Assembly (NCBI GenBank): GCA_028280285.1
Contig: JANQMA010000017.1
Coordinates: forward strand, 993 to 64,992
Length of the DNA: 64,000 nucleotides
Direction: 5' to 3'
Origin: Candidatus Omnitrophota bacterium
Lineage (GTDB): Bacteria; Omnitrophota; Gorgyraeia; Zapsychrales; Zapsychraceae
The translations under genes and the position numbers were made by a program. A model generated the notes under the pieces. The model made no database searches. It was not told where the DNA came from and was given only the letters and a program-made list of their open reading frames with translations. This document shows positions 4,509-23,830 of the stretch, piece after piece. Positions within the stretch are counted from its first letter, which is position 1. Every line of letters begins with the position of its first letter.

Positions 4509-7046
4509 ATGAAATTCTTTAAATTATCAGTGAGCGTCTTTGTTGCAGCGCTATTGTGTTTGGTTTGTTCAAATTTAGCCATGGCCGACAACGGTCAAGT
4601 TGCCCGGATTATCGGAAACGGAATGGGCTATAAACAGTTAAACGCACCTACAACCTTTACGGAAAATAATGAACGTGTTGCAAATAAAGTTCGTGAGGTC
4701 CATGTAAACCACGCGCCAATACAAAGTTCTCCTGAGATTATTCAACTCAGTGCACTGGATAGCGGTCGCACACAACACAATGCGAGTGTGCCATCAAATA
4801 CAGCTTCCTATTCTTCCCGACGTGCTTCTTCCCAAAAACGCGATATTCCCGGAACGCCTGTTTCTTTAATTGATTTGCATCGTTTAAAAGAACTTGATCA
4901 AAAACGCACATATCAAGTCAATGACGAGCCTTTTGTAAAAATCGGACGACCAAGTGCCGGTTTAGTGGGGTCGTTTAAAATAGCGGCCATAGTTTTAGGC
5001 CTTTTTGTTGTGCTTGGTTTTTTTCTCTATAAATCAGGTATTGTGGATAATTGGGGTATTCGCACCAAACTTTATTTTGGTTTCGGCCTGCTTATTGTCT
5101 TGGCGATTACTTTGGGTCTGATCGATCAACGTTCTTTAAATAGTACGACGGCCCAAGCACAGATTGTTAAAGAGCTGCTTTTGGCACATTCTCTTGGGAT
5201 TAAATTAGAGTCTTATCAGAATGAATTTCTTTTAGTTGGCATAGAAGGTAGAGAAAAAGTAGAGGGCATATTAAAAAAACGCCAAGAGAGTGTAGAGGAG
5301 TTGGCCCGGTTACTTCAAAAGTTTAAAAACGAAAAAATAGAACCAAAGATCATAGAAGGGGTCGACAAGATTATCGAAAGAAATGTCCGCTACGAGGCTC
5401 TGTTTAGTGGCATTGTGGAAAAGTATCGGGCTATTCGTGTCGAAAAACAAACTTTAGATGAACAGGCAACGAACATTGAACGTAATGTTGAGCAGCTGTT
5501 GCATGAGCATGAGGCTGATTTAGAAAGCTTACGGGTATCGGGAGCTTCGGATGATGAAATTGGTCTGCAAATTAGATTGATTGAAGAGTTGACGGCAATG
5601 GAGGCGTTAATCCTCAAATTAAGTCATGATCAAGTTGAATTTATGCTCGATAAACGAACAGCCCGGATTGATGAGATGGGACAGTATTTGGGAGGAATTT
5701 ATTATTATCTGGAAGAAGCAAATTATCTTATCGGACAGTCTTCAGCGAATAGTGTAAAGAAGGCCAATGATTTAAGGATGCTTAAGGCAGTGGAAGGAGA
5801 CTTGAAACAGCTTTCTACCGGTTTGACGGATGTTATTGAAAATCAACTCATTGTTGAAGCAGATAATGTTGAATCGAGTGAGATTGTTAAAAGAATGGGC
5901 GCAACACTCGAAGCCTCTGTGCAATATATTCAAGAAAAAGCCTCTCAATTGCAAGCCGCGACCGAGAAAACATCGATGATGATGATCGGTTTTGTGCTGC
6001 TGTTGGGTGCTGCGGCTTCTTATATTGTAGCCGGTGGCATTGCAGCACCTCTGCAAAAAGCTATTGATGATCTTACTAAGGGCTCGGACCAGGTGGCTTC
6101 AGTATCTAATCAAATTTCCAATGCAAGCCAACAATTATCTGAGGGAGCGACCGAACAAGCATCGAGCTTGGAGGAAACGTCGAGCTCGCTCGATGAACTA
6201 TCTTCGATGACGAAAAGCAATGCGGATAGTGCTGCGAAAGCTAATCAAATGGCTGTTGCATCTCGCAGTGAGGCTGAACAAGGTGATAAAGCTATGAAAG
6301 AAATGCAAGAAGCCATGCATGGCATCAGAGAATCATCGGATAAGATCGGAAAGATTATTAAAACGATCGAGGAAATTGCTTTTCAAACAAACTTGCTTGC
6401 GCTTAATGCCGCTGTTGAGGCCGCACGTGCCGGGGAGCACGGAAAAGGTTTTGCTGTTGTGGCTGATGAGGTTCGCAATTTGGCTCAGCGTTCCGCTGTG
6501 GCTGCGAAGGATACAGCCCAGTTGATTGAAGAGAATATTGAAAAAGCAAGAAACGGTTCAGAGATCAGTGATAAGGCAGGTAAGGCATTGACCGAAATCA
6601 TGGACAGCTCTAAAAAGGTAGCAGATGTTGTGACAGAAATAGCCACCGCCTGTAAAGAACAGGCCGAAGGGATTAGTCAGATTTCCAATGCGGTTAGTCA
6701 ATTAGATCAAGTGACGCAACGTAACGCAGCCAATGCGGAAGAAAGCGCCGCCTCATCACAAGAGCTTAATACCCAAGCAGGAACGCTTAAAGATACAGTG
6801 GGTGAATTAATTTCTTTAGTCGGTGGAGCTAATGGCAACTATCGGCAAATGTTAATTACAGATAAAAGGGCTGATGCGAATAAAGCGAGTCGTAATATTG
6901 GAAACCGTCGCGCAGCCCCAAACAAGGCGGGTGGCGTGCAGGAAACGGCCGGACATGCTCATACAACAGGAAGGCTTCCCGAGGGGCCGCAAGTAAAAAA
7001 TGCCGAAGATGTTATTCCGCTTGATGATGATTTTAAAGATTTTTAA
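4509..7046 (+). CDS. methyl-accepting chemotaxis protein (MCP) with two TM segments and a periplasmic sensor region
   Basis: [18 protein letters not shown] signal/TM, second TM ([17 protein letters not shown]), and the highly conserved MCP signalling-domain core [46 protein letters not shown] Shine-Dalgarno before the ATG at 4509; the ORF also opens at 4485. Confidence 0.9.
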
Positions 7047-7061
7047 TGCAACACATTAACT

Positions 7062-9800
7062 ATGAATATTAACGAACTCGAAGAAGCGATAAATAAATTG
7101 GCGGCAGATTTGATTCTGCTTGATTCTTTTTCTAAAGAATCGATGGATGCCTTTTCAGGAACCCTCAATATTTTAAAGACGGCTTATGAAGGGGCGCATA
7201 GTGATGTTTTTCAAAGTATCACCACAACAAGTCAACAGATTTTATCTGACATTGCCGATGAGACAGATAAGAAAACTTCTGTGATTTTGGCATGTATTGT
7301 CAGTTCACTGCAGAATCTTATTAAAGATATTAAGCAAGACGCCGATGTTTCCGGGCATGTCGATCGTTTCAAAAAGGATATCAATGCGCTTATGGGTGGC
7401 GATAATCCGGCTGAACCCCCTCAAACTAATATGGCTGAATCACAGACTAAAGCCATACCAGAATTTATTTCTAACACACAGACTTTACTCGAGGAGATCG
7501 AGGCCGATCTTTTGGATATTGAAAAAAGCGAAAATCCTCAAGATAAAGTTAACAATATATTCAGAGCGTTTCATACCCTTAAGGGTGAGTCGAATCTACT
7601 CAATTTTAAAAACCTCAATACTCTGGCACATAAAGCCGAGGATTTGCTCGAATGCATTAGATTCAATACATTGTGTGTCGATGACAATATTAACACGGTT
7701 TTATTGAAGACGGTTGATGCTGTTAAACAATTTGTTAAGGCGCTTTCCTCTGATCCTTCTTTAGCGGTCAACATAGATTTATCTGATGTGACCGCAGAAA
7801 TTGAAAATATTATCACATCAAAATTTGAGGACAATTCTGATGAAACAGAGGAAGTACAAATAATTGAAAATGAAGTACAAAAAGAAGACCAACCGGTTGA
7901 AGAAGTGTCGCTAGAGCCACAAGAGCCGCAAGAGAGTGAAGAGAAAACAGAGGAGATTGAAATAGAACCATTTACCGCTAAAGTTCCTGAGCTTGATTTA
8001 TCTGAAGGAACAGATATTCTCTCAGAATTTCTGACGGAAGCCACAGAGGATCATTTGAATAATATTGAAGACGGGATCATGACTTTAGAAAAAGATCCTC
8101 AAGATAAAGAAGCGGTTGATGCCGTCTTTAGGGCGTTTCATACCATAAAGGGTCTGGCAGGATTTTTAGAGCTCGAAGATATTCGTACGCTTGCGCATGA
8201 TTCCGAGACAATGCTTGATATGGTTCGCAAAGGCACGCTCGGGTTTGACGGCATTGTGGTTGATCTTACCTTTGAGTCGGTGGATTGTTTGAAAAAATTG
8301 TTTGAACTGCTTTCTGAACAATTGGCCAATGGCGGCGAGCTGCAAAGTCCATATTTTGATGTCGGTCGTCAAATTCAGCGACTAAGAGAAGTTATTGCAG
8401 GCAAAGTGCCTGTGTCAACAAAACCTATTGGTGAAATTTTGGTCGAGGAGGGGGATATCACATCCGACGAGTTAGAAAAGGCACTTGAAATTCAAAACAA
8501 AGAACATCCGGAGAAAAAGGTTGGCGAAATCTTACAGGATAATAATGCGGCAAGTGCCAAGGATGTTAAAAAGGCCGTGAATATTCAAAAAGGTGCGGTT
8601 GAAAATTCGATTAAAATTCGCGTGGATAAGCTTGATGCCTTGATTGATCTTGTGGGTGAATTGGTTATTAGTGAAACACAGGTGGTTCAAAATCCGGTTA
8701 TTAAACAAATAGATAATCAACGTATTGCGAAAGATTTGGCGGAAGTGGATCGCATTACACGCCGGCTGCAAGAAGTGGCGATGGGGATGCGGCTTATTCC
8801 GGTTAAGCAAACTTTTCAGAAAATGCAGCGTATTATCCGTGATCTTTCTAAAAAGTCCAACAAAGACATCGATGTGGTGTTAATCGGGGAGGATACAGAG
8901 ATCGATAAGAATATGGTCGAGCTTATTAGTGATCCGCTGGTGCATATGGTGCGTAATTCTTGTGATCATGGCATTGAGGTCGGTGATGTGAGAGAGGCGA
9001 AAGGAAAACCAAGAGCCGGTAATGTCCAGTTGGCGGCTTTCCATAAGGGTGGCAATGTTGTGATTGAAATCCGCGATGATGGAGCCGGTTTAAATAAAGA
9101 TAAGATTTTGCAAAAGGCGATTGATCGGGGATTGGTTAAGGAAGGCGAAAAGGTTCCTGATAATCGTATTTGTCATATGATTTTTGAGCCGGGCTTTTCG
9201 ACCGCTGATCAAGTGACGGACATTTCAGGACGCGGTGTAGGTATGGATGTGGTTAAGCGTAATATCGAGCAGTTAAGAGGCAAGATTGATATTACAACGG
9301 AACAAGATAAAGGATCTGTGTTTGCGATACAACTGCCCATTACGCTGGCGATTATTGAAGGGATTGTTATTTTGGTTGGCGGGGAGCGTTATATTTTGCC
9401 TATTCATTCTATATTGGAGTTTGTCCAGCCTTTGCCGAAAAACCTGATTAATATTGTCGATAAAGGAGATATTTATAAGGTGCATGAGGAAGTCTATCCT
9501 TTGGTCCGTATGGATCATTTTTTTGGGGTCTCGTCTAAGGTTAGTGATTTTGAAGAAAAGGTGATTTGTTTAGTCGAATCGGATTATGGGCGGGCTTGTT
9601 TGCTTGTTGATGAACTGCTCGGTCAACAGCAAGTGGTGATCAAAAGCCTAGGGGAGAGGTTTAAAGACGTTAGTGGGATTAGTGGTGGAGCGATTTTGGG
9701 CGACGGACAGGTGGGCCTTATTTTAGATGTCAACGGTGTTATATCCCGTGCGCGTGAAGGTTTTTCGCAGGAGGCTGAATACGCCGAGGCGTCTGTCTAA
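7062..9800 (+). CDS. cheA: chemotaxis histidine kinase CheA, apparently with two Hpt domains
   Basis: Two Hpt-like motifs (FRAFHTLKGESNLL and FRAFHTIKGLAGFLEL), a dimerisation region, an HATPase core (HGIE..., IRDDGAGL, GRGVGMDVV) and a C-terminal CheW-like domain. Confidence 0.92.
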   Translation: MNINELEEAINKLAADLILLDSFSKESMDAFSGTLNILKTAYEGAHSDVFQSITTTSQQILSDIADETDKKTSVILACIVSSLQNLIKDIKQDADVSGHVDRFKKDINALMGGDNPAEPPQTNMAESQTKAIPEFISNTQTLLEEIEADLLDIEKSENPQDKVNNIFRAFHTLKGESNLLNFKNLNTLAHKAEDLLECIRFNTLCVDDNINTVLLKTVDAVKQFVKALSSDPSLAVNIDLSDVTAEIENIITSKFEDNSDETEEVQIIENEVQKEDQPVEEVSLEPQEPQESEEKTEEIEIEPFTAKVPELDLSEGTDILSEFLTEATEDHLNNIEDGIMTLEKDPQDKEAVDAVFRAFHTIKGLAGFLELEDIRTLAHDSETMLDMVRKGTLGFDGIVVDLTFESVDCLKKLFELLSEQLANGGELQSPYFDVGRQIQRLREVIAGKVPVSTKPIGEILVEEGDITSDELEKALEIQNKEHPEKKVGEILQDNNAASAKDVKKAVNIQKGAVENSIKIRVDKLDALIDLVGELVISETQVVQNPVIKQIDNQRIAKDLAEVDRITRRLQEVAMGMRLIPVKQTFQKMQRIIRDLSKKSNKDIDVVLIGEDTEIDKNMVELISDPLVHMVRNSCDHGIEVGDVREAKGKPRAGNVQLAAFHKGGNVVIEIRDDGAGLNKDKILQKAIDRGLVKEGEKVPDNRICHMIFEPGFSTADQVTDISGRGVGMDVVKRNIEQLRGKIDITTEQDKGSVFAIQLPITLAIIEGIVILVGGERYILPIHSILEFVQPLPKNLINIVDKGDIYKVHEEVYPLVRMDHFFGVSSKVSDFEEKVICLVESDYGRACLLVDELLGQQQVVIKSLGERFKDVSGISGGAILGDGQVGLILDVNGVISRAREGFSQEAEYAEASV

Positions 9801-9824
9801 GAGTAAGTTAAGGAGAATTATGTA

Positions 9825-10328
9825 ATGCCTGATGAAAATAATGTGCAAACAAGTGCTGTGTCACAGACATCAAATCACGAAGGAAAATACCTGACCTTTG
9901 CTTTGGGCAAAGAGGATTATGGGATTGAAATACTTAAAGTGCGGGAGATTATCGGCATGATGAGTATTACCCATGTGCCGCAAGTACCTAATTATATAAA
10001 AGGGGTTATTAACCTTCGTGGCAAAGTTATTCCTATTATCAATTTGCGTGCGAAGTTCAATATGGATGAAATTGAGCACACAGCAGAAACATGTATCATT
10101 GTGGTTGATATCGATGGCATTCTCATCGGCCTTTTAATTGATAAAGTCAATGATGTGCTGAACATTAACGGTGAGAGCATTGAACCTCCACCTCAATTTG
10201 GTTCGACAATTGACACCGATTTTATTTTGGGGATCGGTAAGGTTTCGGAAAACATGAAGATTTTGCTTAATATTAACAAGGTTCTTAAGGAAGATGTCGC
10301 CGTTGCTGTTGATATAGCTAATAAGTGA
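9825..10328 (+). CDS. cheW: chemotaxis coupling protein CheW
   Basis: 167-aa single CheW-like domain (LTFALGKEDYGIEILKVREI...VINLRGKVIPIINLR) immediately after cheA. Confidence 0.9.
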   Translation: MPDENNVQTSAVSQTSNHEGKYLTFALGKEDYGIEILKVREIIGMMSITHVPQVPNYIKGVINLRGKVIPIINLRAKFNMDEIEHTAETCIIVVDIDGILIGLLIDKVNDVLNINGESIEPPPQFGSTIDTDFILGIGKVSENMKILLNINKVLKEDVAVAVDIANK

Positions 10329-10831
10329 GTAACACAAATAAAAAACTAGAATACTATAATTGCTTTATTCAACCTGGACAGGTGGTTTACAGCCAGGATC
10401 CATCATTAATTTGTGCCGTGTGTGGCAATGGTGTTGTGATTGTGTTGCATGATCGTATTAAAAAGATTGGAGGAGCAGTGCATTGTGTTTATCCTAAATT
10501 AGGACGGGGTCAAAGAGCGAGTAATTATCATGTCGATAGTGCGATTACATCTTTAGTGCAAAGCCTCAAGTCTCTTAAGGCTTCTGCAAGAAGCCTTGAG
10601 GCACAATTATTCGGTGGCGGATGTTACCGTGGGTATGAAAAAAAACGCGCGGAGAAGGTTGTCCTACGCGTCAGAAAAATTTTAAAGGGGCTTAAAATCA
10701 ACATTGTTTCGGAAGATATAGGAGGAGTCCTCGGAAGGAAGGTCGTTTTTAACACGCGCTCAGGAGAGGTTGTTGTGCATAAAACGCGAAAGGTCCGGAA
10801 AACAGATTGGATGCCTGAGTGCCTGCTTTAG
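10325..10831 (+). CDS. cheD: chemoreceptor glutamine deamidase CheD
   Basis: 168-aa CheD-family sequence (LICAVCGNGVVIVLHD...GGAVHCVYP...KVVFNTRSGEVVV). Start overlaps the cheW stop. Confidence 0.8.
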   Translation: MSNTNKKLEYYNCFIQPGQVVYSQDPSLICAVCGNGVVIVLHDRIKKIGGAVHCVYPKLGRGQRASNYHVDSAITSLVQSLKSLKASARSLEAQLFGGGCYRGYEKKRAEKVVLRVRKILKGLKINIVSEDIGGVLGRKVVFNTRSGEVVVHKTRKVRKTDWMPECLL

Positions 10832-11676
10832 AGCTAAACGATAATATATACCGGTTATTTGCAGATTTTATTTATCAGAAAAGCGGAATCGACCTGGGAG
10901 CAAATAAAAAAGGTCTGTTGAAGACGAGACTTCAAAAGCGGATCAGTGCTCTTGGGCTTAGTTCTTTTGAAGAATATTACGAGTTGGTTGTTGAGCAGAA
11001 AGATAGCGAAGAGTTAGTCGGAATGCTTGATGTGGTCTCAACGAACTATACGTTTTTCTTTAGAGAAAGGGATCATTTTGATTTTCTACTTAATGAGGGT
11101 ATTGGATGTATTGCGGAACGTAAAAATGAAACAGGCATTAAACAGCTTAGGGCATGGTGTGCGGCTTCTTCGACCGGTGAGGAAGCATATTCGATTATGA
11201 TTTGCCTTTTGGAGAAAATAAATCCAAGCCTCGGGTGGGATATTAAGATGCTGGCAACAGATATCTCGACGCAAGTGTTAGAAAAGGCAAAGAGAGGAGT
11301 TTACGGGGAAAATCAAGTTCAGAAAATGCCGAAGGCATTTGTCCATAAATATCTTGATACAGTGACTAACAAAGATAATAACCAAGCGTATCGCGTAAAA
11401 CCGATTTTGAATAATTATATTACCTATAGAAGACTTAATCTGATGAATCAGCGATTTCCTTTTAAGGGTAAATTTGATTTTATCTTCTGCCGTAATGTCA
11501 TGATTTATTTTGATCGCCCAACGCAAGAAATGCTTATTAAGAAAATGGCCTCATATTTAGAGGACGACGGGTATCTTTTTATAGGACATTCAGAGGCGCT
11601 GCCTGTTTCTTGTAAAAAGTATTTAAAGACTTTAGGGTCGGCACTTTTTCAGAAAATAAAAGGTGTTGATTTATAA
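10819..11676 (+). CDS. cheR: chemotaxis protein methyltransferase CheR
   Basis: N-terminal CheR all-alpha region plus SAM-dependent MTase motifs (ALELNDNIYRLFADFIYQKSGIDL...RAWCAASSTGEEAYSIMI...FDFIFCRNVMIYFD). Confidence 0.9.
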   Translation: MPALELNDNIYRLFADFIYQKSGIDLGANKKGLLKTRLQKRISALGLSSFEEYYELVVEQKDSEELVGMLDVVSTNYTFFFRERDHFDFLLNEGIGCIAERKNETGIKQLRAWCAASSTGEEAYSIMICLLEKINPSLGWDIKMLATDISTQVLEKAKRGVYGENQVQKMPKAFVHKYLDTVTNKDNNQAYRVKPILNNYITYRRLNLMNQRFPFKGKFDFIFCRNVMIYFDRPTQEMLIKKMASYLEDDGYLFIGHSEALPVSCKKYLKTLGSALFQKIKGVDL

Positions 11677-11696: not shown

Positions 11697-13085
11697 ATGC
11701 GATTTTATAAAAGAATTGTTTTAGGGATGTTTTTTCTGGCGGTGCTTATGATGTATGCGTTTTATCTAGACTTTTCGATATTTCTTGAAAATAAAGAAAA
11801 TTATCAAACGACGATCGAGCAAAATAACACCGGTTGGCGTGAGATTCAAGTAATGAAGAAGGATGTGCTGGCGATAAAAACGGCCATGTATCAACTGGTA
11901 GATTGGGATGTAGCGGCTGATGCTGATTTTCGTAAAAAAGCAATTCTATCAACAATAATGGTGAAATTGCGTGATTCTCATAATCAACTACATTTGTTTT
12001 CGCTTAATGATCAAGGCCTATATGCCTCTTTAGAAAATCAAGTTTACGATCTTTTTAAGATTCGGGAAAACTCTTTTTATTACCAAAGTTTGATTGGTGG
12101 CACAAGCATACAACAAGGTGGGGAACAGATCAGTGTCTATTTACAACACCTCATGTGGGAAAATGAAAAGTGGTGGCAGGCTGCAGAGAAAAGTTTGAGC
12201 GATAACCGGGTTATAGAAACTCAGTGGCCACTCGAGCCCTTAATGACGCGCTATTTTTCCGGGGCGAAGCGGGATGAAGGGCTTATAGACTTGTTTGACC
12301 GCCTTAAAAAAAGTCGCGGTCTTATCTATCAGATGGTTGAATCGATGGAGAGAGAAGATTCCTTTACGCAGAAAGAGAATATTTTTCGCGACAATGAGTC
12401 TGTAAAACAACAGACTCACCAGGCACTTGTTGATCTGCGGGATTATTGGATGAGTCGGCAAAGCGAGTTGCAGCAAAGATGGACACTGCAATCTTCTCTG
12501 GCATTTGACTTAATTAATCAAATCGATCTATGGCTTGATGAACTGCTGGCCCAAAGAAATCAATTATTGGCTGATCAGATTATGACCAGTCAATCAGCCG
12601 ATAAAACGATCAATGAGCTTGAGCTGGGCATTACAGTATTAAATATTCTTATCATCGTCCTCATGTCTATTTTGATTATCCGGTTTTCAACGAAGTTTTT
12701 GTTTAGGTTGGATAATCTTAATGAGGGCACGCGTCAAATATGTAATGCCGCACAAGACCTTTATCAAAAGCAAATTGATGATATCCATGATATGGCGGAT
12801 GCCGTAAGCAGAAATGAACCATATATTGGTGAAAGGACCGATAGTTTAAAAAAGGACATTCGGATGACTAATAATTTGGTTGAGAATGTTGAGCTTCTCA
12901 ATGAATTGGTTTTGGATGTTAATCAAGCTGCTGGACGTAAAATGTTTTTTTTAGATCAGGACAATCATCGTGGTCCTGAGAGGCGAGGTGAGCGCGTTAA
13001 TAATAATCAACTCGAGGCATACTTTGAGAATTTAATAGGTGCTAAACAGCCACAAAAAATCCAAGCAATGCACGACGATAGGTGA
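11697..13085 (+). CDS. membrane sensor-like protein: two TM helices flanking a periplasmic domain of about 280 aa, with a short cytoplasmic tail and no recognisable output domain
   Basis: TM1 LGMFFLAVLMMYAFYL and TM2 ITVLNILIIVLMSILII read from the translation. No MCP signalling core or kinase motifs. Embedded between cheR and cheB. Confidence 0.55.
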   Translation: MRFYKRIVLGMFFLAVLMMYAFYLDFSIFLENKENYQTTIEQNNTGWREIQVMKKDVLAIKTAMYQLVDWDVAADADFRKKAILSTIMVKLRDSHNQLHLFSLNDQGLYASLENQVYDLFKIRENSFYYQSLIGGTSIQQGGEQISVYLQHLMWENEKWWQAAEKSLSDNRVIETQWPLEPLMTRYFSGAKRDEGLIDLFDRLKKSRGLIYQMVESMEREDSFTQKENIFRDNESVKQQTHQALVDLRDYWMSRQSELQQRWTLQSSLAFDLINQIDLWLDELLAQRNQLLADQIMTSQSADKTINELELGITVLNILIIVLMSILIIRFSTKFLFRLDNLNEGTRQICNAAQDLYQKQIDDIHDMADAVSRNEPYIGERTDSLKKDIRMTNNLVENVELLNELVLDVNQAAGRKMFFLDQDNHRGPERRGERVNNNQLEAYFENLIGAKQPQKIQAMHDDR

Positions 13086-13089: not shown

Positions 13090-14142
<1,053 letters not shown>

Positions 14143-14154: not shown

Positions 14155-14550
14155 ATGTTTCCTATTAAAAATATCATGACCAAAGATGTCGTTTCGGTTA
14201 CATCGGATACACCTATTTATGAGGCTATTGAGCAACTGGTCGTCAATAGGATCAGCGGTGTGCCGGTTGTAACGCACGATATGCGGCTGGTCGGTGTTTT
14301 AAGTGAGTGGGATGTTTTACAGTTATTAACGGAAAAGGAAGTTGGTAAAGAACGTACAGTCGAAAGCTATATGACTAAGGAAGTCATTAGTTTTGATGAA
14401 AATGAAAGCGCACTTAAAGTATGCGAATTTTTTAAAGACAGTTATAAGCGGCGTGCTCCTGTGATTAGAGATGGCAAGTTGGTTGGCGTTGTTAGTCGCC
14501 ATGATGTGATTGAATTAATTTTAAGAATACGAAGAAAGATTTCAAGATAG
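14155..14550 (+). CDS. CBS-pair domain protein
   Basis: 131 aa with two CBS motifs (IMTKDVVSV...VNRISGVPVV and MTKEVISF...RRAPVIRDGKLVGVVSRHDV). Confidence 0.75.
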   Translation: MFPIKNIMTKDVVSVTSDTPIYEAIEQLVVNRISGVPVVTHDMRLVGVLSEWDVLQLLTEKEVGKERTVESYMTKEVISFDENESALKVCEFFKDSYKRRAPVIRDGKLVGVVSRHDVIELILRIRRKISR

Positions 14551-14975: not shown

Positions 14976-15907
14976 ATATGGAAGCAGAGCCGGTCGGTCC
15001 AACTGACCTTGAACGGGTTTTTCTTCTTCCGGGCGAGTATCATGTGACAGAAAAACCAAAATTTTTAGCGACACTTTTAGGATCATGTGTCGCGGTATGC
15101 CTTTATAACAAGCATAACGGGAGTGCTGCGTTGAATCATTTTGTGCGGGACAGATCATCAGCCGGTGACAATGATATAGGCCGGTTCGGAGACCTTTCGA
15201 TTAAACATATTGTCAAAGGTTTAAAAGCCTTTGATCCGGATCCTTCCCATTATGAGGCCAAAATATACGGCGGAGGTAATGTGGTTGGGCATTTGAACTT
15301 TGGTGTGAATATAGGCGCGCAAAATATTTCTGTAGCCAAAGAAGTATTGGGTGAGTTGCGTATCCCTATTGTGGAAGATGATACCGGTGGAGGACGGGGC
15401 AGAAAGATTTATTTTAACACATCTAATTTTGATGTCATGACCCGTTTTATGGGTCAGGAGAAAAGAGATTTTAGTAAGCAAGACGTCCGGGTTTTAATCG
15501 TCGATGATTCTATGCTTGTGCGTAGTGTTTTGCGTGGTGTGATTGAACAAACCCCAGGCATGAAAGTTGTTGCAGAGGCATCTGATGCTTTTGAAGCGCG
15601 CGATCTTATTATATCGACGGATCCTGATGTGATCAGTTTGGATATTGTGATGCCAAAAATCGATGGCCTTAAGTTTTTGGAAAAAATTATGGGGCATTAC
15701 CCAAAACCGGTGGTGATTGTTTCAACGATTGCCAAAAACAACTCTGATATAACGAAAAAAGCCCAGAAGCTGGGTGCTGTGGGTGTTGTCGACAAAGATG
15801 TCTTGGAGATTTATAAAGGACAGGAACGGGCCAAAAAAGAGTATATTCCCCTTTTGCGTATGGCAGCGGATCGAAAGGTTGAGAAAACAGTTAAGTATGA
15901 GCGTTAA
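14972..15907 (+). CDS. CheD-receiver fusion (N-terminal CheD domain fused to a C-terminal CheB-like REC domain)
   Basis: N-terminus HVTEKPKFLATLLGSCVAVCLYNK...IYGGGNV...GRKIYFNTSNFDV is CheD-like. C-terminus VRVLIVDDSMLVRSVL...VISLDIVMPKIDGLKFLEKIM...VVIVST is a receiver domain. Second cheD paralog in the cluster. Confidence 0.75.
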   Translation: MNMEAEPVGPTDLERVFLLPGEYHVTEKPKFLATLLGSCVAVCLYNKHNGSAALNHFVRDRSSAGDNDIGRFGDLSIKHIVKGLKAFDPDPSHYEAKIYGGGNVVGHLNFGVNIGAQNISVAKEVLGELRIPIVEDDTGGGRGRKIYFNTSNFDVMTRFMGQEKRDFSKQDVRVLIVDDSMLVRSVLRGVIEQTPGMKVVAEASDAFEARDLIISTDPDVISLDIVMPKIDGLKFLEKIMGHYPKPVVIVSTIAKNNSDITKKAQKLGAVGVVDKDVLEIYKGQERAKKEYIPLLRMAADRKVEKTVKYER

Positions 15908-16841
15908 TAAAATTCTTATTTATGAAGAAGTGGCCGATGATGTGGCCATGATCGAGTATCTTTGCAAGCAGCATGAGATGGAGCCGCATCTTGCACGTGA
16001 TTTTAGCGAGGCCGAGCATATTCTTAAAAGAGAGGATATTAGTGTTGCGGTAATTAATTACGCCCTTGAAAAGTTGACCTTAAAAAGTGATATCGCGGTT
16101 GTAGCGACAGGAGAATCAAGGCTGGAGGCCAGTATGAAGATTATTGGCTACAATCCCGTCTGTTTTATTCCTAAGCCTTTGACTTTTGCGACGATTTCAT
16201 TAGGGTTGACCAAGGCGGCCAAATCATTGTGTGAGACCAAAAGTTATCCTTCTAATGTTGTTAATGTGTTTATGATTTTAGGGGAAATGGAGGCAAAGCT
16301 TATAGCCTTAACAAAAGATGAGCATCACAATATGACTTTAAGTGAACTGGTTAAAGATCATTGTGAGGAGCATTGTCCGTTTGCATGCACCGGAAGCCAG
16401 ATGAGCCAAGACGATGAAAATGAGTATGAGGTGCTTAATTATTTTACATCCCGTGGGGCCTTATTTTGTAAACGTAAAAATATTTGTGAGCTATGGCGTT
16501 TTCATGACTGGTTGGCTGAGGATTATCCGCATCTTGTCAGTGAGCGTCCAACGGATTTGTTGCGGTGTGATTCGTTGAGTGAAGAAAAGATTGGTTTTAT
16601 GGACGGTCTGACACGGGTGATTCAAAAATATAATGACAAGATCAATTTGCTTTATGAGTTGAAGTTTGAGTATGACATGAAAAAATGTGACGCCAAAAAG
16701 GAAGGACTAGAGTTTCAAAAAGGAGATCATCTTTTTTCCAAGGCAGATGAAATTATGAATTGCACTAATTGTGCGTATTGCACAGAGCATGAATGCCCCT
16801 TGGATAAATTCTTTGAAATTTTTAAAAGGAAAGTTATTTAA
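15897..16841 (+). CDS. hypothetical protein with a degenerate REC-like N-terminus and Cys-rich C-terminal motifs
   Basis: Start reassigned to the ATG at 15897 (MSVNKILIYEE), overlapping the upstream stop. The 15774 start would overlap the upstream gene by 130 nt. Cys motifs HCEEHCPFAC and CTNCAYCTEHECP (C-x2-C-x2-C-x4-C-P, ferredoxin-like spacing but with x4). Confidence 0.5.
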   Translation: MSVNKILIYEEVADDVAMIEYLCKQHEMEPHLARDFSEAEHILKREDISVAVINYALEKLTLKSDIAVVATGESRLEASMKIIGYNPVCFIPKPLTFATISLGLTKAAKSLCETKSYPSNVVNVFMILGEMEAKLIALTKDEHHNMTLSELVKDHCEEHCPFACTGSQMSQDDENEYEVLNYFTSRGALFCKRKNICELWRFHDWLAEDYPHLVSERPTDLLRCDSLSEEKIGFMDGLTRVIQKYNDKINLLYELKFEYDMKKCDAKKEGLEFQKGDHLFSKADEIMNCTNCAYCTEHECPLDKFFEIFKRKVI

Positions 16842-16844
16842 TCA

Positions 16845-18032
16845 ATGAAAAAAATACTTATTGTCGACGACGACCCAAATACAAGAAACCTCATGAAACA
16901 AGCCCTTAAAGGTAATGAGTTTATGGAGGCCGAAAACGGCATCAAGGCGCTCGAAGTGGTGGAAGACTTCGATCCCGATCTTATATTGCTTGATCAGAGA
17001 ATGCCCGAGATGGATGGCATTATGACGCTCGATGAGCTCAATAAAAAAGGCATTGAGTTTTATTGCATTATGGTGACGGCTGAAGGGACTGTGCAGTTGG
17101 CAACCGAATCGCTTAAAAGAGGTGCGATTGATTTTATTCAAAAGCCCTTTGATATTTTTGCCTTCCAGCATGTGGTGGAAAGATCCCTGCAGTATGTAGA
17201 AGTAGAAAAAGAGCGTAAACAAGCTCAAGAGGAGTTGGTTCGTCATAAAAATCATCTCGAAGAATTGGTTAAAGAAAGAACAGCCGAGGCCGATAGGGCA
17301 AGGCTCGCTGCCGAAGATGCCAATCAGGCTAAATCGGAGTTTTTGGCGAATATGAGTCATGAGCTACGCACACCGATGCATGCGATTCTAAGTTTTGCCA
17401 AGTTTGGCGATGACCGTATCGATAAAGTAGAAAAGGAAAAACTACACACATACTTTAAAGAAATACGCGGCAGCGGGGAGAGGCTGCTGAGGCTGCTTAA
17501 TGATCTTCTCGATCTTTCTAAATTGGAGGCCGGTCAGACAACATATGAAATGAAACAAGAAAAACTCTCTATTCTTATGCAAAGAGTTATCTTGGAGCTT
17601 TCATCTGTCTGTGAAGAAAAGAAAGTTTCCGTGGTATTTCAGGAGCCGGGCTTTGATGATCAAGTTTATGCTGATGCCAGCAAAATTATTCAGGTAATGG
17701 TTAATCTATTATCCAATGCCGTTAAGTTTTCTCCGGAGGGAGAAAGCATTACGATTGATTTACAAGATGATGGGGACAACATTATATATGCCGTAATTGA
17801 TAAAGGTGTGGGTATTCCGAAAGATGAGTTAGAGCATGTGTTTGATAAGTTCGTTCAAAGTAGTAAAACAAAATCCGGAGCCGGGGGAACAGGTCTTGGG
17901 TTGGCTATTGCCAAAAAGATTGTCGTTGATCATGACGGAACGATTTGGGCTGAGGAAAATCCAGAAGGAGGTGCGATCTTTAAAATGCGTCTTCCTAAGA
18001 AAAAGCCGGAGAGTGATTTCTCAGCATCATAG
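16845..18032 (+). CDS. hybrid response regulator-histidine kinase (REC-HisKA-HATPase)
   Basis: REC (ILIVDDDPNTRN...LILLDQRMPEMDG), canonical H-box ANMSHELRTPMHAIL, N box LLSNAVKFS, G1 DKGVGI, G2 GGTGLGLAI. Confidence 0.88.
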   Translation: MKKILIVDDDPNTRNLMKQALKGNEFMEAENGIKALEVVEDFDPDLILLDQRMPEMDGIMTLDELNKKGIEFYCIMVTAEGTVQLATESLKRGAIDFIQKPFDIFAFQHVVERSLQYVEVEKERKQAQEELVRHKNHLEELVKERTAEADRARLAAEDANQAKSEFLANMSHELRTPMHAILSFAKFGDDRIDKVEKEKLHTYFKEIRGSGERLLRLLNDLLDLSKLEAGQTTYEMKQEKLSILMQRVILELSSVCEEKKVSVVFQEPGFDDQVYADASKIIQVMVNLLSNAVKFSPEGESITIDLQDDGDNIIYAVIDKGVGIPKDELEHVFDKFVQSSKTKSGAGGTGLGLAIAKKIVVDHDGTIWAEENPEGGAIFKMRLPKKKPESDFSAS

Positions 18033-18053
18033 GTAACATAAGGAGAATAAACA

Positions 18054-19136
18054 GTGCCAGATAATCATTCACGCATTCTCATTGTCGATGATGAACCGTC
18101 TAATATTGCTGTTTTAGAAAATATTTTTGAAGGAGAGTTTGTCCTTAAGTCTGTGTCTTCGGGCAAAGAAGCGCTTGAGGCGATAGAGGATTTTTATCCA
18201 GACATTGTCTTACTTGACATTATGATGCCCGGGCTTGACGGGTATGAAGTCTGCCAAAGGCTTCGTGACAGAGAAGAAACGCGCTTTACAAAAATTATAT
18301 TTGTCAGCGCCAAAGAAAAGACAGAAGACAGGCTTAAAGGTTACGGTACGGGGGCGGATGATTATATCACCAAGCCTTTTGATGCCGATGAAATAGCGGC
18401 TAAGGTGCGTATTTTTTTAAAGCTCAAATATGTCGAAGAAGTTGATGAGATCAAAAATGAATTTTTAAATATGTTTGTTAAGGAAAAAAAGACGCCTTTG
18501 CGCGAGATTTTGGGGTTTGCTTCTCTTTTAAAAAAGAGTGTCTTGCCGTCTTTTGCGGATCAGGTTTCGGTTGATGAAATCATTGAACGCGGTAATCACT
18601 TATGGGAGCTTTCTAAAAAAACAAAACTTTTGTGTGAGCTTAAACACAACAAACCATTAACGCAGCAACACCAGGAGATTAATTCCCTGATTGATATGGC
18701 TGTGGAAAATGCCAAGGCTAGATGTAAAAACAAAGATATTTCGTTTCATATACCGAATGGATTTAAACAAGAGGTTTTTCTCGATCCTTCTCTATTTGCG
18801 AAGGCTTTAGCGTATGTGATTGAGAATGCTATTGAGCATTCTCAATCCGGGGGAGAAATAACCGTTTTTTGTGAAGAGGCGGATGAACGATTTTCAGTGA
18901 AAGTTAAAGATCAAGGGCAGCGCATTGACAATAAAAATATGCGAAATATTTTTAATGAATTTGCCACGTCTAATGATAATGCTCCAGAACGTCGTGGAGG
19001 GATCAACTTAACGATTGCCAGAAGAATTGCTTGGCTTCATCAAGGGGATTTTAACATTAGCAATAATGAACATGAGGGTGTCACGTTTGAGTTTAGTTTG
19101 CCTAAAACCGTCGAAAGAGGCAGTTTAACGGATTAA
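18054..19136 (+). CDS. REC-containing histidine-kinase-like protein with degenerate H-box and G2 box (likely pseudokinase)
   Basis: REC domain intact (ILIVDDEPSNIAV...[13 protein letters not shown]). The H-box reads LNMFVKEKKTPLREILGF, where the phospho-accepting His is replaced. The ATP-lid G2 reads RRGGINLT instead of GxGxG. Start GTG at 18054 with AAGGAG Shine-Dalgarno. Confidence 0.8.
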   Translation: MPDNHSRILIVDDEPSNIAVLENIFEGEFVLKSVSSGKEALEAIEDFYPDIVLLDIMMPGLDGYEVCQRLRDREETRFTKIIFVSAKEKTEDRLKGYGTGADDYITKPFDADEIAAKVRIFLKLKYVEEVDEIKNEFLNMFVKEKKTPLREILGFASLLKKSVLPSFADQVSVDEIIERGNHLWELSKKTKLLCELKHNKPLTQQHQEINSLIDMAVENAKARCKNKDISFHIPNGFKQEVFLDPSLFAKALAYVIENAIEHSQSGGEITVFCEEADERFSVKVKDQGQRIDNKNMRNIFNEFATSNDNAPERRGGINLTIARRIAWLHQGDFNISNNEHEGVTFEFSLPKTVERGSLTD

Positions 19137-19159
19137 CGTATCTTTGGGGGAATCGACTT

Positions 19160-20248
19160 ATGGACAGCCATAATCATAGAACCAAAATTTTGGCGGTGGA
19201 TGATGAGCCGACCAACATAACGATTTTCGAAAACATCTTTGAAGATAAAAAACGCTTTGAGTTAAGAACAGCTTCTTCAGGAGAAGAGGCTTTGGGTGTG
19301 ATGCCGGTGTTCAGACCGGATGTTGTTCTTTTGGATATCATGATGCCCGGCATAGACGGTTATGAAGTTTGTCAGAAAATAAGAGATGATGAAAACCTTC
19401 GTTTTACAAAGACCATTATGGTTTCCGCGAAAGCCATGCATGAGGAGAGAATTAGAGGCTATGAGTGTGGGGCCAATGATTATGTCACCAAACCATTTGA
19501 TGAAGATGAACTTCTTATGAAAGTTGAAAGTTTCTTTCAACTGAAATTTGCTAGTGAAATTAGTCAAGTGAAAGAAAATTTGATTAAGCTTGTTTCTCAT
19601 GAGTTGCGCACCCCACTTAACGGTATTTTGGGTTTTAGTGCCTTGCTTGATAAAAGTAATACGATAGGCGAAAGCGAAAAAAGATATATCCATCAGGTGA
19701 TGGAATGCGGTAATCAGCTGCTTGAGTTTTCGCAGAAAGCCTTATTGTTGTGTGATCTAAGATCAGGCAAAGCGCTCACCAAACAGTGGTGTTCGCTTAA
19801 TGAGATTATCACAAAGATTATTGCCAAACTGAAAGTCAAAGCCTCTGAATCGAATATAACTTTTTCTTATGAGGACAAAATCGATGAAGCGGTTTTAGGT
19901 GATTCTGTTCTTATTGAGCAGGCCTTAACATTTGTTATTGAAAATGCGGTTAAATTTTCCCCGGCCAATGGGGAGGTGTCCATACTGGCACAAAGTACCG
20001 GTCATGAGTGCATCATCCATGTGCAGGATCAAGGAGAGGGGATTGATGAAAGGCGGGTCGATGAGATATTTGAGGAAATGTCGCTCGATAATATGGATAA
20101 TCACCAGGAAGGCCAAGGCCTAAGCCTTGCTATTGCACAAAGTATTATGCAGTTACATGGCGGAACATTACAGTTATCGGAAAATTCTAAAGAGGGGTGT
20201 ACGTTTACGTTTAAATTTCCACCGTCGAAAGATAGCACTGTTAAGTAG
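19160..20248 (+). CDS. hybrid response regulator-histidine kinase, paralog of 18054..19136
   Basis: Same architecture and roughly 50% identical N-terminus as the upstream gene, but with the canonical H-box [15 protein letters not shown] plus DQGEGI and GQGLSLAI. Confidence 0.85.
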
Positions 20249-20262
20249 AAATTAGGGGAAAA

Positions 20263-23118
20263 ATGAATTATTTTACGAAATATTCCGGACTTCATAAATA
20301 TGCAGGTAACAAGTACAGTATTTCGGTTATTTTGATGGTTTTAAGCGGGTTTGCCTTAACAGTCTTTGGTCTTGATATGACAAAGAAGTTTGAAAGAGAA
20401 TGGGTTAAAAAGACATTTACAAACAGGGCTCTTGAATTAAGCATGGCGATCAAAGAAGAGATTGATCTTGATTTAGAAAATCTGAACTCTATCAAAGCGT
20501 TTTACGCATCAACCGGTTATGTGAACAGGATTGAATTTAAAGAATTTACTCAACCTATTTTGGAGCGTCATCCGAGTATTCGTGCCTTGGAATGGATCCC
20601 GCGGATGACCGATGAGAACCGCGAAGAATACATCGCCAAAGCGCACGTTGACGGTCATCGCGATTTTCGCATTTTCAAAGTTACTGAGGAGGGTAATTTT
20701 ATTGAGGCCAAAGCCGGTGGAGAATACTTTCCCATCTATTATGTGGAGCCTTTTGAAGATAATAAAAAGGTTTTTGGGTTCGATGTTTCTTCAAGCCCTG
20801 TGCGCTGGAGAAGTTTGATTAAATCACTTAATACCGGCCGTATGACGGCCACCGCTCCGCTTCGCCTTTTGCAAGACGATTTCAATGAATTCGGCATTTT
20901 GGTTTTTAACCCCATTTATCAAAAGAAAACTTCGGCAAGCTTTGCGGAAGAGCGTTATAAGAATATCAAGGGCTTTGTGGTAGGGGTTTTTCATATCGCC
21001 GGTATGATTGAAGGGGTGCTGACAACGTTACAAACGCAAGGGCTTAATATTTATTTGTTTGATAGTATGGCACGAATGAAAGAACAGTTATTCTATCGTT
21101 ACGAACCGGACTTCACATCAGGTGAACAACCTGAACGTTTAGACCAATCCGCTTTGGCTATAGATGTTAAAGATTTAAGATCAGGAACATTTTACGAAGA
21201 ACATTTTCGTGTAGGCGATCACACCTGGACCATTATTTGTAAGCCATCAGAAAGTTTTATAGCTTCTTTAAAAACAAATCAGTCATGGATTCCACTGTCT
21301 ATTGCTGTGTTACTCATAGCTCTTCTCATTATATATTTTATCAGTCATACTCAAAAGTCGTCTCTGGTTGAAAACATTGTCGAGGATAGGACCAAGGAAT
21401 TGTCGGTTGTTAATGATCGCCTGGAGGAGGAGGTGGAGGAGCGCAGGGCAACGGCAGAAAATTTGGCTAGAACAATCAAGGATTTGGAGAAGGCCAAAAA
21501 AGCAGCCATGAACATTATGCGGGATTTCAGAATAGAAAAGGATAAGGCTCAGGCATTAGCGCATCAAGCCCAGGCGGCGGCTCAGGCCAAAAGCGAATTT
21601 TTAGCGAACATGTCGCATGAAATCCGCACACCGATGAATTCGATACTCGGTTTTAGTAAGCTTCTCAAGCAAACAGACCTTGATGAGGAGCAAATGGATT
21701 TTATATTGACGGTTGAATCAAGCGGGGAAGTGCTGTTGGAGTTGATCAATGATATTTTAGACTTTTCTAAAATCGAAGCCGGTAAGGTGGAGTTAGAGAA
21801 AATTGATTTTGATTTAGAGCCGCTGATTGTTGATGTTTTTAAGATGATGACATCGAAGTTCGGGGGTAAAGACATTGAAACCTATATTGATATTGCCGAT
21901 AATGTGCCTGCCCGTATTAAGGGGGATACGACACGGTTAAGACAAGTGCTTATGAATTTTTTAAGCAATGCGATTAAATTTACCTCCCAGGGAGAAATTG
22001 GAATTAAGATCAATCTTGAAGAAGAACGGGAAGATGTGTCTGCACTGCGTTTTTCTGTCAATGACACAGGGATCGGAATACCCGAGGATAAACGGGAGGA
22101 AATATTTGAGTCGTTCAGCCAGGCGGATATGTCGACCAGCCGCAAGTTTGGCGGCACTGGTCTGGGGCTTGCGATTTCCAAGGCTTTAATCACGGCTATG
22201 CAGGGAAAAGTCTGGATTGAGTCAGAGGTTGGTGTCGGTAGTAGTTTTATATTTACAGGATGTTTTGGTAAAGCAGAACCGGTTGAGACAACGGCAATTA
22301 AAAAACGCGATCTGACCGGAACAAAGATTATGATTGTCGACGATAGCGTTATGTCGCAGAAGATTTCCCAGAGACTTTGTGAGCGCTTGAAACTGGATGT
22401 TTTATCTGTGGCTGATAGCGCACCGGCGGCCTTACAGAAAATAGATGAGTTGGCCGCCGGTGACAATCTTCCTGATATTATTTTAAGCGATATCATGATG
22501 CCGCAGATGAATGGCTATGCCTTGATGAAAAAAATTAAAAGCCATACAAAGTGTGATTCTGTGAGAGTGATTGCGATGACACATAACCTTGAGCTCGGCA
22601 TTGCTAAAAAAGCTAAAGAGGAAGGCTTTGACGGGTTTTTACATAAACCTTTGGTCAAAAGTGAGCTGGAAAAAGAAATCATCACAACGTTAAGTGAAAG
22701 TCAAACAGAACTAAAGAGAACTGTTTCTTCGACCGATGAACAAGGAGCCGCGCGGGATATCAGGATTCTTGTTGTCGAAGATAATATTGCCAATCAAAAG
22801 TTGCTTAAGATTCAATTGAATAAATGGGGGTATGACAGCGACTATGTCTTTAACGGGCAAGAAGCGATTGATAAGCTTAAGGAAGATGATCAGTATGATA
22901 TTTGTCTTATGGATCTGCAAATGCCTGTGATGGGTGGCGAGGAGGCCTCGCGGATTATCCGCAAGGACGTTGATAAAGAGATTCCGATCATCGCTTTAAC
23001 GGCTAAGATTGTTGATAATGTAGAAGACGAATGCCGGGAAGCGGGCATGAATGATTATGTCAGCAAACCGATTGATGCGGATGATTTAAAGGAAAAGATT
23101 TTAAAATATACAGCGTAA
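20263..23118 (+). CDS. CHASE-domain hybrid sensor histidine kinase with two C-terminal receiver domains
   Basis: TM, periplasmic CHASE-like region ([21 protein letters not shown]...[19 protein letters not shown]...[15 protein letters not shown]), second TM, coiled coil, H-box [17 protein letters not shown], HATPase ([15 protein letters not shown]), REC1 ([11 protein letters not shown]...[12 protein letters not shown]) and REC2 ([11 protein letters not shown]...[12 protein letters not shown]). Confidence 0.88.
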
Positions 23119-23161
23119 AGCATTTACTTAAAAAATGTAAGGCAAAAGGGGAGACTGCTCT

Positions 23162-23830
23162 ATGTTACATGCACCGATACCGGAAAATGAAGTTGAACGG
23201 CTCGAATCACTCAAAAAATTAAATATTCTTGATACAGCACCGGAAGAACGTTTTGATCGCATCACGCGCTGTGCGCAAAGACTGTTTGATGTGCCTATTT
23301 CAACGATCAGTTTAGTCGACACTAATCGCGAATGGTTTAAATCATGCCAGGGGACCGACGTGACAAAAGGCGACCGGTCTATTTCTTTTTGCGGTCATGC
23401 GATGCTCGCTGATGATTTGCTGGTGATTCCCGATACACATCAGGATGAGCGTTTTAAGGATAATCCAATGGTTGTGGGAGAGCCGCACTTACGTTTTTAT
23501 GCCGGGCAGTCCTTGCGCGGGCCCGGGGCGCATCGTATAGGCACATTTTGTATTAAGGATCAGAAGCCACGGAATATGACCGATAAGGAGAAAGAAAATT
23601 TAAAAGACTTGGCTGCCTGGGTTGAATTGGAGCTTAATGCCTCTGATTTAAGTTTGGCATTGGACGAACGCAATCAAACGCTAGACAAATTAAAACACAA
23701 TAATCAGGAATTGGAAGAGATGAATGAGCTGATGATGGATCGCGAGATACGCATGGTTGAGCTAAAGACAGAAATTAACGATTTGTGCGAAAAATTAGGA
23801 GAAAAATCACGCTACGAAGTGCAAGACTAA
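23162..23830 (+). CDS. GAF-domain protein with a C-terminal coiled coil
   Basis: GAF-like N-terminus (EVERLESLKKLNILDTAPEERFDRITRCAQRLFDVPISTISLVD...FCGHAM...FYAG) and a coiled-coil tail. Confidence 0.7.
   Translation: MLHAPIPENEVERLESLKKLNILDTAPEERFDRITRCAQRLFDVPISTISLVDTNREWFKSCQGTDVTKGDRSISFCGHAMLADDLLVIPDTHQDERFKDNPMVVGEPHLRFYAGQSLRGPGAHRIGTFCIKDQKPRNMTDKEKENLKDLAAWVELELNASDLSLALDERNQTLDKLKHNNQELEEMNELMMDREIRMVELKTEINDLCEKLGEKSRYEVQD

Follow-up and report, generated by a model that had tools for sequence, protein, structure and literature searches.

Introduction

Chemosensory pathways are the most complex signalling systems of bacteria. To our knowledge, little is understood of their non-motility branches and of adaptation through CheD beyond Bacillus and Thermotoga, and we know of no experimental work on such systems in Omnitrophota, Phycisphaerae or Nitrospinota. 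The closest described systems include the CheC-CheD-CheY-P loop of Bacillus subtilis and Thermotoga maritima, the ancestral (stage 1-2) members of class F7, and the pathways of alternative cellular function (ACF). Here we describe a chemosensory gene block at positions 4485-23830 of a 64,000 nucleotide stretch of DNA from a Candidatus Omnitrophota bacterium (assembly GCA_028280285.1, contig JANQMA010000017.1, positions 993 to 64,992 of the forward strand), hereafter referred to as the window. The block belongs to a family of elaborate chemosensory clusters that is conserved but unstudied.

For the CheD of B. subtilis, binding is more important than deamidase activity, and kinase feedback on it requires CheC and CheY-P (PMC3513319). 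Ancestral F7 systems, such as Vibrio cholerae cluster III, Pseudomonas aeruginosa Che2 and Shewanella oneidensis Che1, carry CheD, and a non-flagellar output has been proposed for them in some species (PMC7184735, PMC9855816); species that possess them often drive the flagellar motor with a different system, F6 (PMC7184735). ACF pathways, exemplified by P. aeruginosa Wsp and Rhodospirillum centenum Che3, are characterized by multidomain response regulators (PMC3447774).

Composition and conservation of the block

Sixteen co-directional open reading frames (ORFs) on the + strand span 4485-23830, with junctions of -13 to +43 nt according to the ORF list and Pfam scans, and a terminator scan found no strong terminator-like site within these limits. 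An earlier note, made from the sequence alone, had listed the genes of this block, two histidine phosphotransfer (Hpt) motifs in its CheA and an absence of flagellar, motor and switch genes from the window. Every item of that inventory was recovered from the ORF list and Pfam scans, both Hpt motifs were detected by Pfam, and Pfam scans of ORFs of at least 100 aa yielded no flagellar, motor, switch or pilus gene in the window. The methyl-accepting chemotaxis protein (MCP), CheA, CheW, CheR and CheB all score far over the Pfam gathering score and have intact catalytic or phosphorylation motifs, so that the core set of a Che pathway is present.

Comparison with related loci by gene content (loci are designated by L-numbers) revealed a core, CheA-CheD1-CheR-(X)-CheB-(CBS/CheY)-...-CheD-REC, that is conserved in L005, L006, L007, L057, L092, L093 and L001; CheD-REC denotes a CheD domain fused to a receiver (REC) and X a membrane protein described below. 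The conserved unit is a CheA with two Hpt domains and an MshEN-like module, followed by CheD1, CheR, (X), CheB, (CBS), CheY and CheD-REC, together with a 36H receptor and CheW. In the window, this unit is without the second CheA that some relatives have, and its kinase tail is expanded. Among the matches listed, the closest named homologs of the block proteins belong to metagenome-assembled genomes (MAGs) of Candidatus Omnitrophica and Planctomycetota. About 1.6 kb upstream of the CheA gene of the related cluster L007 lies an actin-like 'Volactin' gene (PF25216; L007 2221-3669).

A receiver-fused CheD and a probable pseudo-deamidase

Two genes of the block encode CheD proteins:

14978..15907, + strand: CheD-REC, 309 aa, an intact CheD domain N-terminal to a CheB-type receiver
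10325..10831, + strand: CheD1, a stand-alone CheD fold with AVCGNGVV in place of TLLGSCVAV

The TLLGSCVAV and NH motifs of CheD-REC are invariant across 20 family members, and its receiver carries the full set of phosphorylation residues. This receiver is nearest to those of CheB proteins (95 bits to 6YMZ and 88 bits to 1A2O), with CheB models also ranking top in NCBIfam. A search with CheD-REC returned 1182 matches, the best 120 of which all contain both domains, and true fusions were found in at least 62 loci from several phyla. The locus labels of the fusion scan include Omnitrophota, Planctomycetota, Nitrospinota, Nitrospirae, Myxococcales/Polyangiaceae, Deltaproteobacteria (including Ca. 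Adiutrix), Thermodesulfobacteriota and Hydrogenedentota. Where the upstream flank was usable (52 of the at least 62 loci), the gene directly upstream of CheD-REC is cheA in 28 cases and cheB or cheY in 3, the remaining 21 being orphans. In databases these proteins bear the names 'response regulator' or 'CheD/CheY-like', and a literature search found no paper describing a CheD-receiver fusion.

CheD1 retains the fold and the His of T. maritima CheD (2F9Z), with Ala in place of the catalytic Thr and Gly in place of the catalytic Cys; the catalytic residues of the T. maritima protein, which we take to be T21, C27 and H44, are consistent with this alignment. The loss of Thr and Cys recurs in four genomes (the window and the Omnitrophota clusters L006, L007 and L057), and CheD1 is for this reason probably a conserved pseudo-enzyme, that is, to judge from its residues, a pseudo-deamidase. 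The canonical CheDs of 11 other loci retain the catalytic motif. The C-terminus ...DW(M/L/T)PE marks the CheD1 type also in L092 and L093.

Clusters with two CheD genes also occur in the Spirochaetota MAG loci L071, L074 and L077, in the order CheA(MshEN-like)-CheY-CheW-CheD-CheR-CheD-CheB. A dead first CheD was considered for these clusters and rejected, since the catalytic Cys is present in both copies. Their order may represent the ancestral arrangement from which a fusion of CheD with a CheB receiver could arise.

With the CheC-CheD-CheY-P loop the block shares the CheD fold, the Thr, Cys and His residues (in CheD-REC), a Gln in the receptor and the idea that kinase output feeds back on CheD. 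It differs in lacking CheC, such that feedback would take the form of direct phosphorylation of the fused receiver, and in having a second CheD devoid of catalytic residues. CheD-REC also resembles CheB, being a predicted receptor-modifying enzyme under the control of a receiver, and one that is closest to that of CheB; however, its catalytic part is a CheD deamidase domain placed N-terminal to the receiver, and an ordinary CheB is encoded in the block as well.

CheA contains an MshEN-like module

The CheA of the block has the following organization:

7062..9800, + strand: CheA, comprising an N-terminal region, P1a, P1b, an MshEN-like module and P3-P4-P5, with neither P2 nor a receiver
7479..7751, + strand: Hpt domain P1a (aa ~140-230), HTLKGE, matching P1 of Rhodobacter sphaeroides CheA3
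8016..8321, + strand: Hpt domain P1b (aa ~319-420), HTIKGL, matching the canonical P1 of Escherichia coli and T. maritima
8424..8588, + strand: tandem MshEN-like motif (aa 455-509), PIGEILVEEGDITSDELEKALEIQ ... KVGEILQDNNAASAKDVKKAVNIQ, two 24-residue repeats

The histidine of the HTxKG motif is kept in both P1a and P1b. The MshEN-like module occupies the usual position of P2, between the Hpt and dimerisation domains, and matches the NCBIfam model NF053729 ('c-di-GMP-binding domain, MshE-related') with 38.9 bits against a cut-off of 38 (E 5.6e-10). It also matches the GSPII domain of Thermus thermophilus PilF (E 5e-8) and the N-termini of PilB proteins. Scored against the relaxed MshEN motif of Wang et al. 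2016 (PMC5013675), repeat 1 shows one mismatch and repeat 2 shows two, and the spacer measures 7 residues rather than the 5 of the relaxed motif. As in the MshEN/GSPII domains of MshE, PilB and PilF (PMC5013675), two 24-residue repeats of the RLGxxLLxxGLLxxxxLxxxLxxQ type are present, a tandem that in the MshEN receptors makes up a 53-residue module. The CheA version differs from these in having Pro or Lys for the first Arg, in the degeneracy of repeat 2 and in its insertion between the Hpt and dimerisation domains. On the basis of these sequence matches, the tandem motif likely binds cyclic di-GMP (c-di-GMP).

CheA orthologs with the module occur in L005, L006 and L057, and one with a single repeat of it in L007. 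It was also found in unrelated CheAs from Spirochaetota, Thermodesulfobacteriota and Planctomycetota loci. The MshEN-CheA combination is already among the domain combinations listed by Wang et al. 2016 (PMC5013675) and is thus known as an architecture, though uncharacterised.

Receptor, core enzymes and pathway class

The remaining components of the chemosensory core are:

4485..7046, + strand: transmembrane MCP with a signal peptide, three hydrophobic segments, a ~285-aa external helical region and no HAMP domain
6048..6800, + strand: 36H signalling domain of the MCP (aa 522-772), gapless alignment to E. coli Tsr 262-512
7029..7043, + strand: C-terminal DFKDF of the MCP, after a long linker
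9825..10328, + strand: CheW (Pfam)
10819..11676, + strand: CheR methyltransferase, consisting of the domains CheR_N and CheR only; nearest solved relative, Salmonella CheR
11697..13085, + strand: protein X, 462 aa, with two transmembrane segments, ~285 external residues and a 130-residue cytoplasmic tail
13096..14142, + strand: CheB, receiver and methylesterase (Pfam)
14155..14550, + strand: stand-alone CBS-pair protein, also found 3' of CheB in L001
14565..14975, + strand: CheY-like single-domain receiver with an insertion (Pfam)

The cytoplasmic domain of the MCP aligns with Tsr 262-512 over 251 residues with zero gaps (~190 bits), whereas insertions are needed to align it with the 44H receptor TM1143, and the receptor is therefore assigned to the 36H class. 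It lacks HAMP because its last transmembrane segment (~498-527) runs directly into the signalling domain. The methylation-site motifs are EQ, EE, DE and EE, which makes the Gln at site 1 a possible substrate for deamidation. The receptor ending ...FKDF is shared by the MCP orthologs of L005, L006 and L007 and, by analogy with NWETF, we infer that this tail is a putative tether for CheR and CheB. The CheY of the block is conserved in related clusters (139-181 bits) and retains the aromatic switch residue.

The 36H receptor is a trait of F7 systems, which use this class preferentially (PMC6943060). In comparisons with reference enzymes from E. coli/Salmonella (F7), T. maritima, B. subtilis and P. 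aeruginosa F6, a set with no ACF, type IV pilus (Tfp) or F8 member, the P3-P5 region of CheA scored 365 bits with E. coli CheA versus 308 bits with that of T. maritima; CheB scored 375 bits with the full-length Salmonella protein, and its catalytic domain 232 bits with Salmonella versus 146 bits with T. maritima; and CheR scored 168 bits with Salmonella versus 118 bits with P. aeruginosa CheR1 and 115 bits with B. subtilis. The best match of the CheA core in a plasmid and chromid collection (46.8% identity) belongs to a Vibrio cluster ordered cheY-cheA-cheW-cheW-mcp-cheR-cheD-cheB-mcp, a gene order which is that of stage-1 F7 systems according to Ortega et al. (PMC7184735). Taken with the 36H receptor, the similarities of CheA, CheB and CheR within this reference set provisionally point to the F7 side.

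The block itself, ordered mcp-cheA-cheW-cheD1-cheR-X-cheB-CBS-cheY-cheD-REC, departs from the F7 arrangement cheY-cheA-cheW-(mcp)-cheR-cheD-cheB. It shares with ancestral F7 systems (PMC7184735, PMC9855816) the use of 36H receptors, a CheD gene near those of CheR and CheB, and a location outside flagellar genes. It differs from them in its CheA with two Hpt domains and the MshEN-like module, in the split of CheD into a dead and a receiver-fused copy, in lacking STAS or phosphatase partner genes while having a kinase tail, and in the order CheD-CheR-X-CheB rather than CheR-CheD-CheB.

The earlier note had regarded the locus as more typical of an ACF pathway. As a statement on function this is plausible, given the REC-histidine kinases (REC-HKs), the lack of flagellar and pilus genes and the recurrence of hybrid kinases beside related clusters, but as a class assignment it found no support. 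Multidomain response regulators are present, in the form of three REC-HK genes and a hybrid kinase, and with Wsp and Che3 the block shares a chemosensory core, multidomain response regulators including REC-histidine kinase fusions, and a plausible non-motility output. ACF-typical architectures are absent, however, as CheA ends in a CheW-like domain without a receiver and CheR lacks TPR repeats. In addition to having no CheA-REC hybrid or CheR-TPR, the block differs from ACF systems by its 36H receptor and CheD, and by the absence of any enzymatic or DNA-binding output domain. It also departs from Tfp systems, since its CheA has two Hpt domains without a receiver and the window contains no pil gene.

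Protein X, encoded between CheR and CheB, has no Pfam or NCBIfam match. The earlier label of an MCP-like sensor has no sequence support beyond the succession of transmembrane, external, transmembrane and tail regions: BLASTP detected no similarity to the MCP of the block (E>1), and its reading as an MCP paralog was rejected. Its identification as a MAC protein was likewise rejected, since MACs contain a kinase. A 619-aa homolog of protein X (E 8e-10), with matching topology and a conserved C-terminal motif, occupies the CheR-X-CheB slot of L092. In L093 the slot between CheR and CheB is filled by a 775-aa PAS-PAS histidine kinase (L093 1134-3461).

Kinase tail and Cys-rich pseudo-receiver

Downstream of CheD-REC the block continues with six genes:

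15897..16841, + strand: Cys-rich protein, 314 aa, a pseudo-receiver plus a Cys domain, of a small unnamed family with no Pfam match
16845..18032, + strand: REC-HisKA-HATPase kinase 1, with intact H, N and G boxes
18054..19136, + strand: REC-pseudokinase 2, with Lys for the phospho-His, degenerate G1 and G2 boxes and no HisKA match
19160..20248, + strand: REC-HisKA-HATPase kinase 3, with H, N and G boxes all intact and 41% identity to its paralog, kinase 2
20263..23118, + strand: CHASE-transmembrane-HisKA-HATPase-REC-REC hybrid kinase, with intact H, N and G boxes
23162..23830, + strand: GAF domain and coiled-coil protein, the final gene of the block, followed by a weak terminator-like site and tRNA-Arg

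Phosphorylation residues are kept in all eight true receivers of the block (8/8), one kinase (REC-HK2) and one receiver (that of the Cys-rich protein) being degenerate. Related clusters carry, within or beside them, Hpt, REC, REC-HK and REC-REC genes, a second CheA, and multi-PAS HK-REC(-REC) kinases. Strong homologs (218-458 bits) of the CHASE kinase's HK-REC-REC core lie beside L005, L057 and L093, and REC-HK3 has its best outside homolog (152 bits) on the flank of an MshEN-CheA cluster in L083.

The N-terminal half of the Cys-rich protein adopts a receiver fold in an AlphaFold2 model built on a 16-sequence alignment (predicted local distance difference test, pLDDT, 86), with Foldseek template modelling scores (TM) of ~0.7 to CheY and PhoB. 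Its pocket has EE for DD, and Asn at the D57 phospho-acceptor position. A receiver fold without the acidic pocket and acceptor Asp identifies it as a pseudo-receiver. The C-terminal half contains the conserved pairs Cx3C, Cx5C, (C/D)x3C and Cx4C, which amount to 7 conserved Cys positions in the window protein and 8 in most relatives. Foldseek matched the receiver half only, with no match in the PDB for the C-terminal half, which we guess might hold a metal or Fe-S site.

An exhaustive search of 1.84 billion proteins yielded 30 representatives of this family, of which a word-indexed homology search recovers just 2-3; a metagenome scan with the Cys-rich alignment gave no match. Relatives of ~615 aa were considered as CheD-REC plus Cys-rich fusions, a reading that was rejected as they are tandem duplications of the Cys-rich module. 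The gene lies 3' of CheD-REC in two genomes, the window and an Omnitrophica MAG (L085). It is not strictly linked to che genes, other contexts being found in four other genomes: in L090 a homolog of the block's CheY lies 3' of a tandem form, and elsewhere the neighbours are housekeeping genes, a GGDEF gene or hybrid kinases. A 34%-identical homolog (L088 10001-10951 and L089 5837-6787) adjoins ValS, pseudouridine synthase, NadC, UvrB and PilZ. This neighbourhood, where no che cluster is present, corresponds in part to the housekeeping block at 27.9-32 kb of the window.

Boundaries and genomic context

The surroundings of the block contain the following features:

3156-3232: tRNA-Pro, 5' of the carbonic anhydrase gene and the che block
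3241..3395, + strand: upstream boundary, with strong terminator-like hairpins at 3241-3274 and 3299-3329 and then an 11/12 sigma-70-like site at 3368-3395
3611..4462, + strand: secreted alpha-type carbonic anhydrase, ending 22-46 nt before the MCP
23930-24006 and 25087-25161: tRNA-Arg and tRNA-His, 3' of the che block
27132-27479 and 27898-28272, + strand: two PilZ-domain genes, 3.3-4.1 kb downstream and outside the block

The che unit is probably bounded on its upstream side by the segment 3241-3395, which would also supply its promoter. The hairpin pair and the near-consensus promoter-like site lie on the 5' side of the carbonic anhydrase gene, which may be the first gene of the che transcription unit. 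Its co-transcription with the che genes could hint at sensing of CO2/bicarbonate or pH. No counterpart of it was found in related che loci.

No flagellar or pilus genes were found within ~10 kb of the block or of 6-7 related clusters. The two PilZ genes to which the earlier note drew attention are indeed present downstream, yet their link to the block is weak, as tRNAs, opposite-strand genes and terminators lie in between. The motif within CheA provides a stronger connection to c-di-GMP than these nearby genes.

The GC content of the block is not deviant, and its GC skew is 0.12-0.29, compared with mostly ~0.02-0.17 (locally <=0.24) in the rest of the window. A DUF748/AsmA-like membrane protein of at least 999 aa, cut by the left edge of the window, is encoded at 1-2998 on the - strand, and a second one at 24020-24976, between tRNA-Arg and tRNA-His. 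The remaining ORFs of the window (at least 100 aa) encode housekeeping or unknown functions, including GroEL, GuaB/A, UvrB, CoaX, DnaE, HisRS, an Asp/Asn-tRNA synthetase, PhoH, YbeY and RecO. An ORF of 2504 aa at 38520-46034 has as its sole Pfam match a weak HPr-like stretch (aa 2268-2338). Between phoH and ybeY, a protein with 7TMR-HD and HD domains (56443-57900) appears unrelated to the che cluster; we take it to be PgpH-like, of a family of c-di-AMP phosphodiesterases.

Proposed signalling scheme and alternatives

As to output and mechanism, we infer with moderate confidence that the block is one operon-like chemosensory super-cluster, in which CheA drives phospho-control of CheD-REC and of a kinase branch and the main output is not flagellar. 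The phosphorylation targets of ligand-controlled CheA would be CheY, CheB, the receiver of CheD-REC and the receivers at the N-termini of the REC-kinases. In its phosphorylated state CheD-REC would be tuned in deamidase activity, in receptor binding, or in both, within one polypeptide and without CheC, and the dead CheD1 would work through receptor binding rather than catalysis. Binding of c-di-GMP at the MshEN-like module beside P3 may modulate CheA. A branched phosphorelay made up of the second Hpt, the REC-kinases and the CHASE hybrid kinase would convey the output to a regulator beyond the window or bring in a second input, and it is on account of this relay that the main output is proposed to be other than the flagellar switch.

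Several observations weigh against this scheme. The core proteins look F7-like, and many F7 systems steer flagella; the negative result on flagellar genes covers the window and the flanks of related loci, so flagella encoded elsewhere in the genome are possible. The score of the MshEN-like module exceeds the NF053729 cut-off by less than 1 bit, its repeat 1 has Pro for the key Arg and its repeat 2 lacks the conserved Gly. In CheD1 a Cys is found three residues before the lost one, which leaves some residual activity possible. The three REC-kinases are just 20-30% identical to the ~400-aa REC-kinase of related clusters, which means that the kinase tail is not orthologously conserved, and no output domain (DNA-binding, GGDEF/EAL or other) is encoded in the block.

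Ordinary flagellar chemotaxis of the F7 lineage, with CheY binding the switch, the CheDs fine-tuning adaptation and the kinase tail as an unrelated neighbour, would account for the 36H receptor and for CheA, CheB and CheR being nearest to the E. coli/Salmonella proteins. The F7 gene order of the best plasmid-database match, the aromatic switch residue kept in CheY, the CheX phosphatases of the related clusters L001 and L092 and the lack of orthology of the tail kinases among relatives agree with it as well. It is nevertheless unlikely, because flagellar genes are missing from the window and from the vicinity of related clusters, kinases recur beside those clusters, and the tail is closely joined to the core (CheD-REC and the Cys-rich gene overlap, and 3 nt separate the latter from kinase 1). 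The frequent use of F6 to run the motor in species with ancestral F7 systems (PMC7184735) speaks against it too. Quite improbable is membership of the ACF class proper, with control of second messengers, development or type IV pili through PilZ effectors. The REC-HK multidomain response regulators are its stated hallmark (PMC3447774), two PilZ genes do lie downstream, and L001 has a PilZ gene between cheA and cheR. Against it stand the 36H receptor, a class not reported for ACF in the literature consulted on receptor classes, the CheA without a C-terminal receiver, the CheR without TPR, the lack of GGDEF, EAL, HD-GYP or pil genes in the block, and the two tRNAs, opposite-strand genes and terminators that separate the PilZ genes from it.

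Signal flow could also run in the reverse direction, the CHASE and REC-kinases serving as inputs that pass phosphate from the kinase to a receiver, then to P1a or a free Hpt, and on to CheY, CheD-REC and CheB, or else the receivers could act as phosphate sinks. A second, non-MCP signal would then reset the adaptation state of the chemosensory system. The second Hpt in CheA, the free-standing Hpt genes beside CheD-REC in relatives, the CHASE kinase with two receivers and no Hpt of its own, and the homologous HK-REC(-REC) cores beside L005, L057 and L093 would suit such a flow. Its basis is one of architecture, and the simpler reading of kinases with N-terminal receivers is that an upstream donor controls them; we hold reverse flow to be improbable, if slightly less so than membership of the ACF class.

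Implications

It is conceivable, although we advance it only tentatively, that the block represents an undescribed chemosensory lineage of the Planctomycetes-Verrucomicrobia-Chlamydiae (PVC) group and other uncultivated bacteria. In this lineage CheD-REC and the pseudo-CheD would replace the CheC/CheD loop, CheA would be gated by c-di-GMP, and a redox- or metal-sensing pseudo-receiver together with the REC-kinases would lead to a kinase cascade rather than a motor response.

The block overturns no current concept, and its points of interest are mainly the CheD-REC/pseudo-CheD pair and the MshEN-CheA. CheD-REC, often encoded right after cheA, would let the kinase feed back on the receptors without CheC, and the conserved dead CheD amounts to an experiment of nature on what CheD does through binding alone. 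Through its likely c-di-GMP pocket, CheA would be a chemosensory kinase tied straight to the second messenger of the choice between sessile and motile life.

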